DNA of 19,748 nucleotides from Candidatus Aenigmatarchaeota archaeon (GCA_043808015.1 JAZDFI010000005.1:1-19748); one strand, 5' to 3'. Positions 4,652-17,378 are shown, counted from the stretch's first letter. A program made the numbers and translations. Notes: generated from the letters alone by a model not told the origin.

Positions 4652-4692
4652 ACTTAATATATTTCAATATATAATACGATTCAGTGAATTCC

Positions 4693-5160
4693 ATGGAAAT
4701 AAAAAAACACGGCGCTATCGTGCGCCCAACCTGGGACGAATACTGGATGAACATCGTCGAGCAGGTCGGTAAACGCTCGACGTGCCTCCGCAGGAACATA
4801 GGCGCGGTCATAGTGAAGGACAACATAATAGTATCGACGGGATTCAACGGCGCGCCGAGAGGACTGCCTCACTGCCTCGAAATCGGATGCCTGCGTGACG
4901 AGCTGAATATACCTTCAGGCACGCGACATGAAATATGCAGAGGCGTGCATGCAGAGCAGAACGCGATAATCCGCGGCGACCCGCTCATGATGGATGGAGC
5001 GACGATGTACGTCAACGCGAAACCGTGCAAGATATGCGCCAAGATGATAGCCAACTCCGGAATAGCGAAAGTGGTTTACGTCGAGATTTATCCTGACGAC
5101 GAGGGAATCGAGATACTGAAACATACGAAAATCGAGCTTGCGCCATTCAGGAAGAAATAA
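4693..5160 (+). CDS. dCMP deaminase / ComEB-like Zn-dependent deaminase
   Basis: RPTWDEYWM, RSTCLRR, TGFNGAP, HAEQNAI and PCKIC. ATG 4693 preferred over GTG 4684. Confidence 0.9.
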   Translation: MEIKKHGAIVRPTWDEYWMNIVEQVGKRSTCLRRNIGAVIVKDNIIVSTGFNGAPRGLPHCLEIGCLRDELNIPSGTRHEICRGVHAEQNAIIRGDPLMMDGATMYVNAKPCKICAKMIANSGIAKVVYVEIYPDDEGIEILKHTKIELAPFRKK

Positions 5161-8671: not shown

Positions 8672-9343
8672 ATGGCAGCAGAACGGTCGCATTCAAAATA
8701 CAAAATGGTCGTCTTCGACCTCGACGGCACGCTAATCGACGGCACAGCTTCCATATGGTCCACGATGCACAGGATTCTCGGCATAGATGAGCATCCGAGG
8801 CGCGTTGAGCTGCGCAGGAAATTCAGGGAAGGCGAGATAGACTACAACCAGTGGGCCGAAGAGGACATGAAGCTGATGGTGGAGCACGGCTTGAACAGGA
8901 AAAATGTTTTTGAAGCCGCGGAGAAACTCAGGTTGACAGCAGGCACGCGCGAGACGCTGGATGCACTGAAGGCGAGAGGCATGAAACTCGCGCTCGTTTC
9001 AGGCAGCTTCGACATCGTGCTTGAAAAGCTCATCCCCGACTACAGGAAAATTTTCAGCCACGTCTACGTCGTCAAACTCGTTTTCGGCAAAGACGGAAAG
9101 TTCAAGGAAATGGACACATGCCACGACGCGTGGAACAAGGACATAGCGCTCCGCGAAATCTGCGCGAACGAGGGCGTATCGCTGGAAGAGTGCGTGTTCG
9201 TCGGCGACCACAGCAACGACGTGAGCGCCTCGAAAATCGCCGGCCTGGCGATAGCGTTCGACCCCAAGTCCGACAAGCTGCGCGAGGCGGCGGACGTAAT
9301 CATAGAGAAGAAGGACATGCGCGAGATCCTGAAGCACATCTGA
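8672..9343 (+). CDS. HAD-IB hydrolase, phosphoserine phosphatase (SerB)-like
   Basis: Motif I FDLDGTL, motif II VSGS, motif III Lys (NKD), motif IV VGDHSND, then GLAIAF. Confidence 0.82.
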   Translation: MAAERSHSKYKMVVFDLDGTLIDGTASIWSTMHRILGIDEHPRRVELRRKFREGEIDYNQWAEEDMKLMVEHGLNRKNVFEAAEKLRLTAGTRETLDALKARGMKLALVSGSFDIVLEKLIPDYRKIFSHVYVVKLVFGKDGKFKEMDTCHDAWNKDIALREICANEGVSLEECVFVGDHSNDVSASKIAGLAIAFDPKSDKLREAADVIIEKKDMREILKHI

Positions 9344-12860: not shown

Positions 12861-12923
12861 ATCATTTCATGCCCGTTTGCGTCTTACGTGAAAACTTTTT
12901 AATAACGCATCACAATTTTATTC

Positions 12924-13955
12924 ATGCTCGTCGATGGCAGGCATTACCGCACGGTCTGGCTGGACAATCGCCATATTAAAATGATAAACCAGCTTCTTCT
13001 CCCACACGCATTCGAAATCGTAAGCCTGCGAAGCACGGACGAAATCGTCCGCGCGATAAAGACCATGGTCGTGCGCGGCGCGCCGGCTATAGGCGCGACA
13101 GCCGCTTTCGCAATGGCGCTCGGCGTCGCCAGCGCGCCCAGAAAGAACTTCGATGCCCGGATAGCGCAGACGGCCAAGAAAATCAAAGGCGCGCGGCCGA
13201 CTGCTTACGACCTGTTCCACGGAGTGGACTTCATTCTCGACGCGATTGCAAACGCAAAATCGCCTGAACAAAAGAAAAAGCTCGCCATCAAGGCAGCCGA
13301 AGAATACGCAAACGCTTCAGCAAAGGCGTGCGAGAAAATCGGGGAATACGGCTCGAAGCTGATAAAAAACAATTATCGCATCGCGACGCACTGCAACGCG
13401 GGCTGGATAGCATGCGTCGACTGGGGCACAGCCCTGTCGCCGATGTATTTCGCGAAGCGGCAAAACAAGAACATATTCGTATGGGTCGATGAGACCCGTC
13501 CCCGCCTCCAGGGAGCGAAGCTGACATCATGGGAGCTGCTCAACGAAGGAGTCGCTCATGCGGTCATAGCGGACAACGCCCTCGGCCACTACATGAGACG
13601 GGGCGAAGTCGACATGATGATAGTCGGCGCGGACAGGATCGCAGCGAACGGCGACTTCGCGAACAAGATAGGCACGTACGAGAAAGCCGTCCTAGCCAAA
13701 GAGAACAAGATTCCTTTTTACGTTGCCGCTCCGGCATCGACATTCGACCTGAACTGCAAGTCCGGCGACAAGATAATAATCGAGGAGCGTGACGAGGGCG
13801 AGATTCATTTCGTGGGACGCGAGCGCGTCACGCCAAAAGGCGCGAAGGCGCGAAATCCCGCGTTCGACGTGACGCCGGCGAAGTACGTCACAGGATTCAT
13901 CACGCCGCTGGGCATCATAAAGCCAGGCGCGATAGTCCGCGCTTTCAAAGAATGA
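12924..13955 (+). CDS. mtnA: S-methyl-5-thioribose-1-phosphate / 5-deoxyribose-1-phosphate isomerase
   Basis: NQLLLP, VRGAPAIG, ARPTA, THCNAG...GTAL, DETRPRLQGAKLTSWEL, GADRIAANGD.ANKIGT and NPAFDVTP. This is the MtnA pattern rather than ribose-1,5-bisphosphate isomerase. TATA-like TTTTTAAT near 12896. Confidence 0.92.
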   Translation: MLVDGRHYRTVWLDNRHIKMINQLLLPHAFEIVSLRSTDEIVRAIKTMVVRGAPAIGATAAFAMALGVASAPRKNFDARIAQTAKKIKGARPTAYDLFHGVDFILDAIANAKSPEQKKKLAIKAAEEYANASAKACEKIGEYGSKLIKNNYRIATHCNAGWIACVDWGTALSPMYFAKRQNKNIFVWVDETRPRLQGAKLTSWELLNEGVAHAVIADNALGHYMRRGEVDMMIVGADRIAANGDFANKIGTYEKAVLAKENKIPFYVAAPASTFDLNCKSGDKIIIEERDEGEIHFVGRERVTPKGAKARNPAFDVTPAKYVTGFITPLGIIKPGAIVRAFKE

Positions 13956-14018
13956 AAATAACTTTTATATTTCCAGAAATGTCTTTTATATCATCATATT
14001 TTGGTTTGGGGTGATGTT

Positions 14019-14807
14019 ATGGATTGGGGCAAGAAAAATCGCATGGACAGGATCATAAGGCCCGACGGCCACACGCTGATGCTCGCCGTCGATCACGGTT
14101 ATTTCCTGGGTCCGACAAGCGGCCTCGAGAAGCCGAGGAAGATGATAATGTCGCTGGCGCCTTACGCGGATTGTTTAATGCCGACGCGCGGCGTTCTCAG
14201 GAACTGCGTGGACACGAGCATCGACATTCCCGTCGTCCTGCGAGTATCGGGCGGAACCAGCGTGATCGGAAAAGAACTCCTTCACGAGGGCATAACCGTC
14301 TCGATGAAAGACGCGGTCCGGCTCAACGTAGCCGGCGTAGCGTTCTCGATAATGGTCGGCTCGGAATACGAGCGAGACACGATACTAGGGCTTTCGCAGG
14401 TCGTGGACCAGGCCGAGGAGTATGGAATCCCGGTCGTCGCTGTGACAGCCGTCGGCAAAGACATGGCCCGCGACGACAGGTATTTTGCGCTGGCGTCGCG
14501 CATCGCGGCCGAGCACGGCGCGAGCATAGTCAAGACGTATTACTGCGACCGCTTTGAAAGGGTGGTGGATACGTGCACAGTGCCGGTCGTAATCGCCGGC
14601 GGCAAGAAGCTGCCCGAAATGGAGGCGCTGGAAATGGCATACAAGGCGATAGAGGCCGGCGCAGCGGGCGTGGACATGGGCCGCAACATCTTCCAGGCGG
14701 ACAATCCTGTAGCGATGATAAAAGCCGTGAGGGCGATAGTCCACGAGAAGGCAACTCCGAAAGAGGCGTATAATATTTTGAAAGCGAATTCCAGAAAGAA
14801 GAAGTAA
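14019..14807 (+). CDS. lsrF: LsrF-type class I aldolase-fold 3-hydroxy-5-phosphonooxypentane-2,4-dione thiolase
   Basis: N-terminus [34 protein letters not shown], Schiff-base Lys in VKTYY, VIAGGKK and [19 protein letters not shown] at 14008-14014 precedes ATG 14019. Confidence 0.85.
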
Positions 14808-14842
14808 ACGAAAAATAAAGAAATTGGGGATTGGGTGAGAAT

Positions 14843-15148
14843 ATGGTGTGTTATATAATTCCGCTGGCGACCGGCATTATAACTGCGGCGCGAAGAAAGG
14901 TCATGCACAAGAAAGACAAGGAAAGTCTTTGGCTGAGCCTCATGTTTGCTGGCGCGTCCGTGTTCGGCGTGGTTGACCACGCGTGGAACGGCGAGCTGAT
15001 GATGATCGGCCCGAACATCGCTTCCGACCTCGCGCTAGGGACGGCAATCACAGCAGCCGTGTTCGTGAGCTGGGGCACCGTAACGCATAAAGACAGGATA
15101 TTCGAGGCGCTCAGGCCGCTCAGCAGGATAACGGGAATTCTGAAGTGA
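14843..15148 (+). CDS. Small membrane protein (about 3 TM), unknown function
   Basis: SD GGGTGA at 14833-14838 precedes ATG 14843; three hydrophobic segments; co-oriented within the cluster. Confidence 0.7.
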
Positions 15149-15185
15149 AATCAGCTGAAATTGAAAACCGGAAATGTGATTCAAG

Positions 15186-16205
15186 ATGAAAGTCGCCATG
15201 TATTACAACAACCACGACATCCGCCTTCAGGAAATGCCCGTGCCGGACATAGGCGATAAAGAGATTCTGCTCAAAGTCATGTCTTCCGGCATATGCGGCT
15301 CCGACGTGATGGAATGGTACCGCATAAAGAAGGCGCCGCTGGTCCTCGGCCATGAGGTCGCTGGTGTCGTGCACAAGACCGGCAAGAAAGTCAAAAGCTT
15401 CAAAAAAGGCGACCGCATATTCGTCACGCATCACGTCCCCTGCGACAGCTGCTCATACTGCAAAGGCGGCAACGAGACCGCGTGCCACACGCTCAAGACG
15501 ACGAACTTCCATCCGGGCGGCTTCTCCCAGTACATCCGCGTCCCTGAAATCAACGTGCGCAAAGGGACTCTCGAGCTTCCCAAGGGCATGACGTTCGACG
15601 AAGGCACGTTCGTCGAGCCCGTCGCATGCGTCGTCCGCGGCCAGCGCGTCGCGAACGTGCGCAAAGGTAACGTCGTCGCAGTGCTTGGCTCTGGAATGAC
15701 GGGCCTGCTCCACATACAGCTGGCAAAGGCGAAAGGCGCGGTCGTCATAGCGACGGACGTCAGCGAATACCGCCTGAAAATGGCCAAGAAGATGGGCGCG
15801 GATTACGTCATAGACGCGCGCGAAGACGTCCCGGCCAAGATAAAGGAGCTTGCAGGCAAGCTCGCGGACAGGGTAATCGTCTCGACGGGCGCGATGCCCG
15901 CGATAAAGCAGGCTTTCAGCTGTCTCGATGCCGGAGGAACCATATTGTTTTTCGCGCCAACCGACCCCGGAGCCGAAGTCGCAATGCCGTTCAACGACAT
16001 CTGGTTCAAGTCGGCCAGCATAGTCACCACGTACGCAGCCGCCCGCAGCGACCTGACAGAAGCGATAAAGCTGATAAAGACGAAGAAAATCAGGGTGAAG
16101 CCCATGGTCACGCATCGCCTGCCGCTCGCGCAGACGCAGAAGGGCTTCGGGCTGGTCATGAGCGGCGCGGCGTCGGTCAAGGTCATCATAGAGCCGCACA
16201 AATAG
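15186..16205 (+). CDS. Zn-dependent medium-chain dehydrogenase (sorbitol/threonine DH-like), probably NAD+-linked
   Basis: Catalytic Zn ligands CGSD, GHE and VEP; structural Zn CDSCSYC..C; Rossmann GSGMTG with an acidic residue (ATDVS) typical of NAD+ preference. Confidence 0.92.
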   Translation: MKVAMYYNNHDIRLQEMPVPDIGDKEILLKVMSSGICGSDVMEWYRIKKAPLVLGHEVAGVVHKTGKKVKSFKKGDRIFVTHHVPCDSCSYCKGGNETACHTLKTTNFHPGGFSQYIRVPEINVRKGTLELPKGMTFDEGTFVEPVACVVRGQRVANVRKGNVVAVLGSGMTGLLHIQLAKAKGAVVIATDVSEYRLKMAKKMGADYVIDAREDVPAKIKELAGKLADRVIVSTGAMPAIKQAFSCLDAGGTILFFAPTDPGAEVAMPFNDIWFKSASIVTTYAAARSDLTEAIKLIKTKKIRVKPMVTHRLPLAQTQKGFGLVMSGAASVKVIIEPHK

Positions 16206-16235: not shown

Positions 16236-16268
16236 GTTTAAACGAATGTTTAAACATAACTTTATATA
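16236..16268 (+). promoter_or_regulatory. Tandem GTTTAAAC palindromes plus TATA box upstream of the doc/fic gene
   Basis: GTTTAAAC at 16236 and 16248, ATGTTTAAACATAAC at 16246-16260, TTTATATA at 16261-16268, ATG at 16291. Confidence 0.7.
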
Positions 16269-16290
16269 TCCTTATTACGAAAAAGTATAT

Positions 16291-16647
16291 ATGAATTCGG
16301 AATACATAATCTCCAGGGACCAGATAAAAAGGATAAACGAAATGTATGGCGGGAGCCTGAGAAGCGACGCGGAGATAGAGACCGCGCTTGAGATGGGCAA
16401 AGGCAAGGCCGTTTTCCGGAAGGTAGCATGCCTGTGGAGAGCGATACTTGTCGGCCACCCGTTCACTGACGGCAACAAGAGGACAGCCCTAATGGTGGCG
16501 CTTACAATATTGGAAGATTGCAACATCAGGGCCGAGGAAAAGGCAAAGGAGGCCATGGTTTCGGAGATAACCAAAGTGGCGAAGGAGAACATAACCGATA
16601 TCAACAGGATAGAGAGGCTGGTAAGGTATGCAGTGGAAGGCAATTGA
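16291..16647 (+). CDS. Fic/Doc family protein (Doc-like toxin)
   Basis: HPFTDGNKRTA Fic motif with the Doc-type Lys; about 118 aa. ATG 16291 chosen because ATG 16246 lies inside the upstream motif. Confidence 0.85.
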   Translation: MNSEYIISRDQIKRINEMYGGSLRSDAEIETALEMGKGKAVFRKVACLWRAILVGHPFTDGNKRTALMVALTILEDCNIRAEEKAKEAMVSEITKVAKENITDINRIERLVRYAVEGN

Positions 16648-16886: not shown

Positions 16887-17378
16887 ATGATTATGGCCAA
16901 GTCGAAAATTACGCCCAGAAAAGAATTCATGGCAGCAGCGATAGAGAAAGCCATGCGCACGAAAATCAAGGGCGACTACGCGTTCGGCGCAGTCGTTGTG
17001 AAGGGCGACAAGATAGTCTCGACTGGCGGCAACCACGTCAAACGCGATAGCGACCCCACGCGCCACGCCGAGATGGTGGCCATCCACCGCGCGTCGAAAA
17101 TCCTCGCCACCAGGCACCTCAAGGGATGCGTGCTCTACTCGACGCACGAGCCTTGTCCCATGTGCACGTCCGCCGCGATATGGGCAAAGATGGACGGCAT
17201 CGTGTTCGGAGCGAAGATAAAGGACATAGACGCGCACAGGAAGAAGAAGGGCAACGAGGAATTCGAATGGAGGACGATATCGATTCCCTGCTCCGTCGTC
17301 GCGGAGCACGGAGACCCGAAAATCGCAGTCGTCGAGGGATTCATGCGCAGGGAATGCATGCAGCTCTTCCACAATTAA
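16887..17378 (+). CDS. Cytidine-deaminase-fold nucleoside/nucleobase deaminase (GuaD/TadA-like)
   Basis: FGAVVVK, DPTRHAEM, LYSTHEPCPMC and IVFGA; TATA TTTATATA at 16849-16856. Confidence 0.88.
   Translation: MIMAKSKITPRKEFMAAAIEKAMRTKIKGDYAFGAVVVKGDKIVSTGGNHVKRDSDPTRHAEMVAIHRASKILATRHLKGCVLYSTHEPCPMCTSAAIWAKMDGIVFGAKIKDIDAHRKKKGNEEFEWRTISIPCSVVAEHGDPKIAVVEGFMRRECMQLFHN

Follow-up and report, generated by a model that had tools for sequence, protein, structure and literature searches.

Organisms with radical S-adenosylmethionine (SAM) enzymes all need to dispose of 5'-deoxyadenosine, and the known routes for doing so depend on an enzyme, a class II aldolase, that is missing from many anaerobes and archaea. 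Two papers describe the dihydroxyacetone phosphate (DHAP) shunt as using such a class II enzyme (PMC6079011, PMC12632272), and for archaea an aldolase is suggested in a 2018 review that also mentions the anaerobic DHAP/ethylene route (PMC6302742). Another described system supplies the second term of comparison: LsrF of Escherichia coli, which takes part in autoinducer-2 (AI-2) processing, is annotated as a thiolase of 3-hydroxy-2,4-pentanedione-5-phosphate (P-HPD), an activity reportedly established by Marques in 2014, and the 2009 work on its structure detected no product without a cofactor that was then unknown. In this work, we analyzed a gene cluster of a Candidatus Aenigmatarchaeota archaeon in which mtnA is followed by a gene of the LsrF family and a gene for a zinc-dependent medium-chain dehydrogenase/reductase (MDR). 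The whole stretch of DNA analyzed, hereafter the window, is contig C5 (JAZDFI010000005.1:1-19748; 19,748 nt) of a 934-kb genome (GCA_043808015.1) assembled in 39 contigs and 90.7% complete; the nearest named relative is a Candidatus Aenigmatarchaeota metagenome-assembled genome (L044), whose LsrF homolog is 98% identical to that of the window. We consider it likely that the LsrF homolog and the MDR work as a pair downstream of MtnA in the salvage of SAM by-products. That they would do so by oxidation of C4 and coenzyme A (CoA)-dependent thiolysis to DHAP and acetyl-CoA, a mechanism in which the substrate, the direction in which the MDR works and the involvement of CoA are inferred, has in our judgement about an even chance of being right.

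The four genes of the cluster lie on the + strand with close spacing, the intergenic gaps being 63, 35 and 37 nt if ATG starts are assumed. They are mtnA (12924..13955; TIGR00512, PF01008); the LsrF-family gene (14019..14807; NF006081), encoding a class I aldolase-fold enzyme of 262 aa that we propose to be a CoA-dependent thiolase; a small membrane open reading frame (ORF); and the gene for the Zn-MDR (15186..16205), a 339-aa protein of the polyol/threonine-dehydrogenase type proposed as a 5-deoxyribulose-1-phosphate 4-dehydrogenase. The initial annotation, made from the sequence of the window, had listed these four co-oriented genes and the absence of lsrK, lsrG, an AI-2 transporter, mtnB/C/D and a class II aldolase. 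On both counts it was borne out, as all four genes are where it had placed them and a scan of the other 16 large ORFs of the window gave no lsrK, lsrG, ABC transporter, mtnB/C/D or class II aldolase.

In the pathway that we propose, this cluster would be the lower half of a salvage route for 5'-deoxyadenosine and 5'-methylthioadenosine (MTA). MtnP, encoded elsewhere in the genome, would phosphorolyse both nucleosides, and MtnA would convert 5-deoxyribose-1-phosphate, or 5-methylthioribose-1-phosphate, to 5-deoxyribulose-1-phosphate, or 5-methylthioribulose-1-phosphate (MTRu-1-P). The LsrF-MDR pair would then stand in for the class II aldolase of the DHAP shunt: the NAD-dependent MDR would oxidize the C4 hydroxyl, a methyl carbinol, yielding P-HPD, and the LsrF homolog, forming a Schiff base through Lys178, would pass the acetyl group to CoA and release DHAP and acetyl-CoA. 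DHAP would enter glycolysis via triosephosphate isomerase, and ATP could be gained from acetyl-CoA via an ADP-forming acetyl-CoA synthetase-like enzyme. The statement of the initial annotation that 5-deoxyribulose-1-phosphate oxidized at C4 is exactly P-HPD, the substrate of E. coli LsrF, is correct by structural reasoning; C4 oxidation of 1-deoxyxylulose-5-phosphate (DXP) would give P-HPD too, a rival source in bacteria.

The LsrF homolog scores 396 bits against NF006081 (cut-off 297), matches the E. coli LsrF structure 3gkf (E = 6e-88) and is 55% identical to LsrF of E. coli K-12. The residues described for the active site of LsrF include Asp251, which is replaced by Ala in 2-amino-3,7-dideoxy-D-threo-hept-6-ulosonate (ADH) synthase and in the archaeal fructose-bisphosphate (FBP) aldolase (PMC2728841). 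D57, H58, K203, Y205, G226, G227, D251, G253 and R254 (E. coli numbering) are all conserved in the window protein. Moreover, the Schiff-base Lys203 (Lys178 of the window protein), Asp57, Asp251 and the phosphate-site residues His58, Gly226, Gly227, Gly253 and Arg254 are invariant among the window protein, E. coli LsrF and seven archaeal homologs. The ORF called mechanically opens at TTG 14001; the true start is probably ATG 14019, because homologs begin with MDWG and a GGTGA (14010-14014, + strand), the likely ribosome-binding site, stands 5 nt upstream of that ATG. A role of this protein in the 6-deoxy-5-ketofructose-1-phosphate route to aromatic amino acids was also considered and was rejected for this genome, where no dehydroquinate synthase II was found.

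The MDR carries the Pfam domains ADH_N and ADH_zinc_N, and among proteins of solved structure it comes closest to sorbitol dehydrogenases (E = 1e-45). It passes no NCBIfam cut-off, the best model being that of threonine 3-dehydrogenase (TIGR00692) with 186 bits versus the 458 required. Across 91 LsrF-linked MDRs there is no or almost no variation at C37, H56, E57 and E144, at the cysteines C86, C89, C92 and C100, in the motif G168xG170xxG173 and at D191; in the same set, a His82-His83 pair just ahead of the structural-zinc lobe is conserved and Arg151 is invariant. The roles of C37/H56/E57/E144, of G168/G170/G173 and of D191 are those that we assume from an alignment with sorbitol dehydrogenase and from what is known of MDR enzymes, and D191 predicts the use of NAD(H). 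The nearest solved relatives, the sorbitol, threonine and butanediol dehydrogenases, act on secondary alcohols. In ammonia-oxidizing archaea (L068, L073, L083, L087, L090, L093, L096, L098, L102, L103, L112, L114, L119 and L120) the dehydrogenase gene lies upstream of LsrF, and its product is 33-38% identical to the window MDR versus 46-65% in other loci, and may represent a separate subgroup of MDRs with the same job.

As regards the upper steps, the window MtnA passes the cut-offs of TIGR00512 (383 bits; cut-off 279) and NF004326 (409; cut-off 271), and reaches 206 bits against the ribose-1,5-bisphosphate (R15P) isomerase model TIGR00511 (e2b2), under its cut-off of 314. A second IF-2B paralog, closest to R15P isomerase, is encoded elsewhere, on G000:C25, where it adjoins the gene for the TATA-binding protein (L041), apart from the RuBisCO and AMP phosphorylase genes; type III RuBisCO adjoins AMP phosphorylase at G000:C6:27776-30157 (L042), a separate nucleotide route. 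The initial annotation had suggested a search of the genome for MtnP or an MTA nucleosidase and for a class II aldolase of the DHAP shunt. MtnP was found above its cut-off (G000:C8:76088-76798; NF006334, 394 bits, cut-off 382), and a class II aldolase (PF00596) was found neither in this assembly, given its 90.7% completeness, nor in four other genomes of the genus. Within the same limits, no FGGY kinase and no second MDR were found in the genome, nor a second DhnA-type aldolase with the window LsrF homolog as query. The genome holds at least seven radical SAM genes, spermidine synthase family genes and a triosephosphate isomerase gene. A second spermidine synthase-family match (G000:C3:12175-12675; L176) has an in-frame TGA within a frame of 388 aa. 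Since MtnP and MtnA are present, 5-deoxyribulose-1-phosphate and MTRu-1-P would be made, and of the known enzymes that could process them further none is present except the two neighbours of mtnA, that is, the LsrF homolog and the MDR.

The initial annotation had also proposed a survey of LsrF neighbourhoods for a Zn-MDR without lsrK or lsrG. A pattern scan with one genome per species matched LsrF relatives in at least 594 species, and we analyzed the 80 loci most similar to the window, drawn from more than 20 archaeal and bacterial phyla, together with 30 short loci of relatives in the window's order and 16 LsrF loci of Desulfobacterota. The survey bore out that part of the proposal: an MDR gene stands beside LsrF in 66 of the 80 distant loci, on the same strand in all 66, with a median gap of 81.5 nt and a gap of at most 300 nt in 52, and LsrK, LsrG, LsrR and LsrB occur in none of the 80. 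The MDR is likewise adjacent in 11 of the 16 Desulfobacterota loci, none of which has LsrK or LsrG, and it occurs in 20 of the 30 short loci from the window's order; for MtnA and for the small ORF the count there is 11. LsrF and the MDR are, then, a conserved two-gene module. An unbiased clustering of the neighbouring genes, which is rough because 13 LsrF genes of G+C-rich loci escaped the greedy ORF caller, gave no family besides these two in more than 10 of the 80 loci. In a search for fusions, 33 longer proteins were retrieved. Three MDR-LsrF fusions among them (P0260, P0263 and P0265) were set aside as likely chimeras of adjacent genes, because they are truncated in both halves, with 40 to 80 residues missing from the C-terminus of LsrF and 2 to 39 from the start of the MDR, and all come from one protein-assembly source; a fusion of LsrF with a short-chain dehydrogenase/reductase (SDR), the 676-aa P0256, is a single sequence that may be genuine.

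The placement of this module downstream of MtnA rests on gene content in wider samples: 61 genomes of the window's order, 101 of a Thermoplasmata-like class and 151 of Desulfobacterota; MtnA was also counted in 81 genomes of Nitrososphaeria. In the window's order, MtnA passes its cut-off in 30 of the 33 genomes that match LsrF strongly, versus 6 of the 28 others. Within family f1, to which the window belongs, a class II aldolase occurs in only four genomes, all without LsrF, and its distance to mtnA on the same contig is 45 nt in one case (G011) and about 2.4 kb in another (G008). Among the Thermoplasmata-like genomes it occurs in 5 of 60 with LsrF versus 34 of 41 without, where at least 10 genomes have it as the immediate neighbour of mtnA, and only 7 of the 101 have neither gene; among Desulfobacterota the figures are 21 of 49 versus 90 of 102. 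LsrF and the class II aldolase are thus largely alternative partners of MtnA in two outgroup samples and in family f1. This alternation, the signature of a non-orthologous replacement, places LsrF and the MDR downstream of MtnA. Direct linkage of mtnA and LsrF is seen as well: mtnA adjoins LsrF in 11 of the 30 relatives' loci and, among the 80 distant loci, in L044, L048 (Altiarchaeota), L049 (Thermoplasmata) and L067 (Anaerolineaceae), and in L153 both mtnA and mtnP lie 3.4 kb from LsrF. Two unpublished genomes are included, G074 (= L062; among the 80 loci, the set of 50 genomes mentioned below and the rows of the tree) and G207 (among the 101 Thermoplasmata-like genomes); no claim hangs on either alone.

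A phylogeny of 128 homologs, computed by a quick search under LG+G4 with a single long paralog as root, places E. coli LsrF within a clade of nine rows (SH-aLRT 99) whose other eight members are Desulfobacterota proteins, five of them MDR-adjacent and one encoded near mtnA and mtnP. E. coli K-12 LsrF (L043) is nested among Desulfobacterota homologs (L154-L159) that share its N-terminal extension; homologs of this type are full-length matches to the LsrF model, with 480-520 bits, and are MDR-linked rather than lsr-linked. Given this nesting, the simplest account is that a P-HPD thiolase already in existence was taken into the lsr operon with its reaction unchanged. It is tempting to go one step further and suppose, tentatively and with slightly more doubt than conviction, that the LsrF family serves, chiefly and by ancestry, not quorum sensing but the oxidative, thiolytic salvage of SAM by-products together with a dedicated Zn dehydrogenase, in hundreds of mostly anaerobic or uncultivated species of more than 20 phyla, where it would replace the class II aldolase, and that the enterobacterial LsrF of AI-2 processing is a late recruit.

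Several observations weigh against the proposed salvage route. The expectation that mtnA would be part of the conserved linkage of LsrF stood only in some lineages: mtnA adjoins LsrF in 11 of 30 relatives, and just 4 of the 80 distant loci have it at 8 kb or less from LsrF. In 14 of these 80 no MDR is seen, although five or six of the 14 have their LsrF gene no more than about 1.4 kb from the end of a contig. Outside the window's order, the co-occurrence of LsrF with MtnA is no evidence either way, since nearly every genome there has MtnA (96 of 101 Thermoplasmata-like, 143 of 151 Desulfobacterota and 71 of 81 Nitrososphaeria genomes); in the Thermoplasmata-like class it is present in 58 of 60 genomes with LsrF and in 38 of 41 without, and for the same reason a co-occurrence of 45 out of 50 carries little weight for archaeal genomes. 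The alternation with the class II aldolase has its exceptions, too. Over the whole order of the window no association between the two was found; in f6, a second family of Aenigmatarchaeota, 12 of 14 genomes have the aldolase, at least seven with MtnA, in part a haloacid dehalogenase (HAD)-family gene, LsrF, MDR and class II aldolase in one cluster; three Desulfobacterota loci (L149-L151) are arranged in a like manner, with the aldolase beside LsrF and the MDR; in two others a 698-aa fusion of class II aldolase and SDR takes the place of the MDR beside LsrF; and all three Nitrososphaeria genomes known to have LsrF carry the aldolase as well. Kinship among the genomes of each sample makes Fisher p-values overstate the evidence, which we count as three lineages and not as 300 genomes. 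Besides, the gene resembling the alpha subunit of ADP-forming acetyl-CoA synthetase reaches 521 bits, under the curated cut-off of 567. Lastly, the Lys/Asp pair found in true class I aldolases is retained in LsrF, which would make aldol cleavage of the unoxidized sugar chemically possible. The oxidative salvage route as first proposed has thus gained from the LsrF-MDR linkage, from MtnP and from the alternation with the class II aldolase, and has lost ground where the linkage to mtnA proved limited to certain lineages, where the aldolase clusters with the module (f6 and some Desulfobacterota) and where three Nitrososphaeria genomes hold both.

Two details of these clusters may be added. In L147 (1846-8304) and L148 (2346-7557), LsrF is followed by the aldolase II-SDR fusion, a GntR/FCD regulator and genes of a tripartite ATP-independent periplasmic (TRAP) transporter, an arrangement that may be a variant of the module for deoxy-sugar catabolism. 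The class II aldolase-family gene of L137-L139 and L145 (f6) and of L149-L151 is short (about 195 aa) and very divergent; against the NCBIfam models, the genes of this family in the Aenigmatarchaeota clusters reach 39-68 bits at best, and MtnB, ribulose-1-phosphate aldolase and FucA remain far under their cut-offs; the gene is assignable neither to MtnB nor to the aldolases or epimerases.

The main rival is a class I variant of the DHAP shunt, which we hold to be improbable, if still deserving of attention. In it, the LsrF homolog would cleave 5-deoxyribulose-1-phosphate or MTRu-1-P without CoA to DHAP and acetaldehyde or 2-(methylthio)acetaldehyde, and the MDR would reduce the aldehyde to ethanol or 2-(methylthio)ethanol. 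Clustering with mtnA and alternation with the class II aldolase are accounted for equally well by this variant, the Schiff-base lysine and the general-base aspartate are conserved, and the NAD(H) use predicted from D191 fits either direction; in the known anaerobic DHAP/ethylene route, too, the aldehyde is reduced by an alcohol dehydrogenase. Nevertheless, none of 10 clusters of MtnA with class II aldolase (14 kb each) contains an MDR, as opposed to the 66 of 80 LsrF loci; a dedicated aldehyde reductase is therefore no general need of the route, while LsrF is almost always accompanied by a dehydrogenase. The MDR has, furthermore, the Glu zinc ligand of the polyol/threonine type and not the Cys-His-Cys set of primary alcohol dehydrogenases; E. 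coli LsrF, with 55 to 68% identity and a place in the tree amid homologs linked to an MDR, is a thiolase that gave no product without CoA; and a class II aldolase in the same cluster as LsrF (f6; L149-L151) would be redundant if LsrF were itself an aldolase. Oxidation followed by thiolysis is favoured over the aldolase-reductase pair because all the described active-site residues of LsrF are kept, including Asp251, because of the position of E. coli LsrF in the tree, and because the MDR combines a Cys-His-Glu-Glu zinc site with nearest solved relatives that oxidize secondary carbinols.

Other readings concern the substrate. It seems unlikely to us that LsrF and the MDR act on another phosphosugar, the adjacency to mtnA in Aenigmatarchaeota being secondary; candidates would be DXP, giving P-HPD, or a 6-deoxyhexulose-1-phosphate such as fuculose- or rhamnulose-1-phosphate, giving lactyl-CoA and DHAP. 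The scarcity of mtnA beside LsrF in the 80 distant loci, the lack of any other gene family in more than 10 of these neighbourhoods, the resemblance of the two Desulfobacterota loci with aldolase II-SDR, GntR and TRAP genes to a sugar catabolic operon and the chemical reasoning that several 3-hydroxy-2,4-diketone phosphates are allowed all speak for such a substrate. DXP is not expected in archaea, though, which use the mevalonate route, a 0.93-Mb genome in which no FGGY sugar kinase was found has no obvious source of deoxyhexose, and this reading does not predict that, in three lineages, LsrF alternates with a class II aldolase located beside mtnA. Adjacency of mtnA, moreover, recurs across four separate phyla. 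Far less probable is a route of the non-carboxylating pentose-bisphosphate type, in which an R15P isomerase and a HAD phosphatase would lead to ribulose-1-phosphate, LsrF would cleave it to DHAP and glycolaldehyde, and the MDR would reduce the latter. The gene types (isomerase, HAD, aldolase and reductase) are those of the haloarchaeal pathway, the window has a HAD gene 3.6 kb upstream of the cluster and one of the beta-phosphoglucomutase type lies between mtnA and LsrF in f6; yet the window isomerase passes the MtnA cut-off and fails that of R15P isomerase (206 versus 314), the genome has a separate e2b2-like paralog and a carboxylating route with type III RuBisCO and AMP phosphorylase, and the window HAD, of subfamily IB, is unrelated to the HAD-IA of f6. 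Finally, processing of AI-2 is what the names 'AI-2 aldolase' and 'LsrF' in NCBIfam and in the source records suggest, and a 2024 study counts lsrF among the quorum-sensing genes of ammonia-oxidizing archaea (PMC11442133). We give this reading hardly any credence: LsrK, LsrG, LsrR and LsrB are missing from all 80 distant and all 16 Desulfobacterota loci, no FGGY kinase was found in the genome, AI-2 has no known path to P-HPD without LsrK and LsrG, and the family extends far beyond the lsr operon, with E. coli LsrF nested inside it.

The remaining features of the window stand outside this argument. A TATA-like, A/T-rich box, TTTTTAATAA (12896..12905, + strand), read directly about 24 nt upstream of the mtnA ATG, is a putative archaeal promoter element, judged by the consensus; a second TATA-like box, TTTTATAT (13984..13991, + strand), also read directly, lies 28 nt upstream of ATG 14019 and would have a comparable function. 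The small hydrophobic ORF (14843..15148, + strand; 101 aa from its ATG, or up to 105 aa with the frame opening at TTG 14831) has hydrophobic stretches and no Pfam or NCBIfam family, its Atlas neighbours all being labelled 'hypothetical protein'. We place it outside the conserved module because, between LsrF and the MDR, it is confined to family f1 (the 11 of 30 relatives' loci) and to 1 of the 80 distant loci. The other 16 ORFs comprise a helicase, MscS, two deaminases, DUF192, SMC, PIN, HAD-IB, a membrane pyrophosphatase, CPA2, Doc, a molybdenum cofactor (Moco) oxidoreductase and four without a family. The HAD gene (8672-9343), 3.6 kb upstream of the cluster, was considered as a member of the pathway; this is unsupported, as it is of the HAD-IB phosphoserine-phosphatase type. 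Directly downstream of the MDR lies a Doc/Fic-family gene, similar to death-on-curing toxins (16246-16647), and a gene of this family is found on the opposite strand beside LsrF in a relative (L006). The two deaminase genes, of the cytidine/deoxycytidylate family, are at 4684-5160 and 16887-17378, the second being weakly TadA-like. In L044 (2894-6885) mtnA is preceded by a tandem pair of genes for membrane pyrophosphatases, with 50% and 96% identity to that of the window, where the window has a single pyrophosphatase followed by a CPA2 antiporter.

A full-text search, with most subscription journals outside its coverage, returned no publication linking LsrF to the salvage of 5'-deoxyadenosine or MTA. 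If oxidation and thiolysis by the LsrF-MDR pair are correct, the gap left by the class II aldolase would be filled by new chemistry that keeps the C2 unit as acetyl-CoA plus NADH and avoids toxic acetaldehyde, and the C2 unit so kept would be worth ATP to a fermenting, genome-reduced archaeon. A function would be at hand for a very widespread and tightly conserved gene pair, with LsrF relatives matched in at least 594 species, and the origin of the enterobacterial AI-2 thiolase would be explained. The annotation as 'AI-2 aldolase' or 'LsrF', already taken as archaeal quorum sensing in a printed study (PMC11442133), would be corrected.

Compared with the systems described so far, the LsrF-MDR route is a variant of a known salvage pathway with wide phylogenetic reach. 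With the DHAP shunt (MtnP or MtnN/MtnK, MtnA and Ald2/DrdA) it shares the upper steps, the isomerase, DHAP as a product and the task; unlike the shunt, it has a class I-fold enzyme plus a dehydrogenase where the class II metal aldolase was not found, and its proposed C2 product is acetyl-CoA with NADH, not acetaldehyde. The window protein resembles E. coli LsrF in its NF006081 membership, its 55% identity, all described active-site and phosphate residues and the products proposed for it, DHAP and acetyl-CoA. In contrast to the E. coli gene, it has no lsrK, lsrG, lsrR or lsrACDB nearby and no kinase was found genome-wide, it is partnered with a Zn-MDR and lacks the N-terminal extension of about 25 residues, and its P-HPD would come from an oxidized SAM by-product instead of AI-2. 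ADH synthase (MJ0400) and the archaeal class IA FBP aldolase (DhnA family), the next-nearest families, have the same fold and Schiff-base lysine; their models score 196-206 bits on the window protein versus the 396 of the LsrF model, they have Ala in place of the LsrF-specific Asp251, and the Tyr proton donor is not conserved (PMC2728841). As for the second member of the pair, it shares with the sorbitol, L-threonine 3- and butanediol dehydrogenases the MDR fold, the Cys-His-Glu(-Glu) zinc site, the NAD-type Asp and the predicted oxidation of a secondary carbinol, in many cases one that bears a methyl group, and with threonine dehydrogenase the Cys4 motif of the structural zinc, whereas it differs from the polyol and threonine dehydrogenases in falling under every curated equivalog cut-off, in forming a widespread LsrF-linked group of its own, in its His82-His83 and invariant Arg151, and in the phosphorylated substrate that we propose for it.

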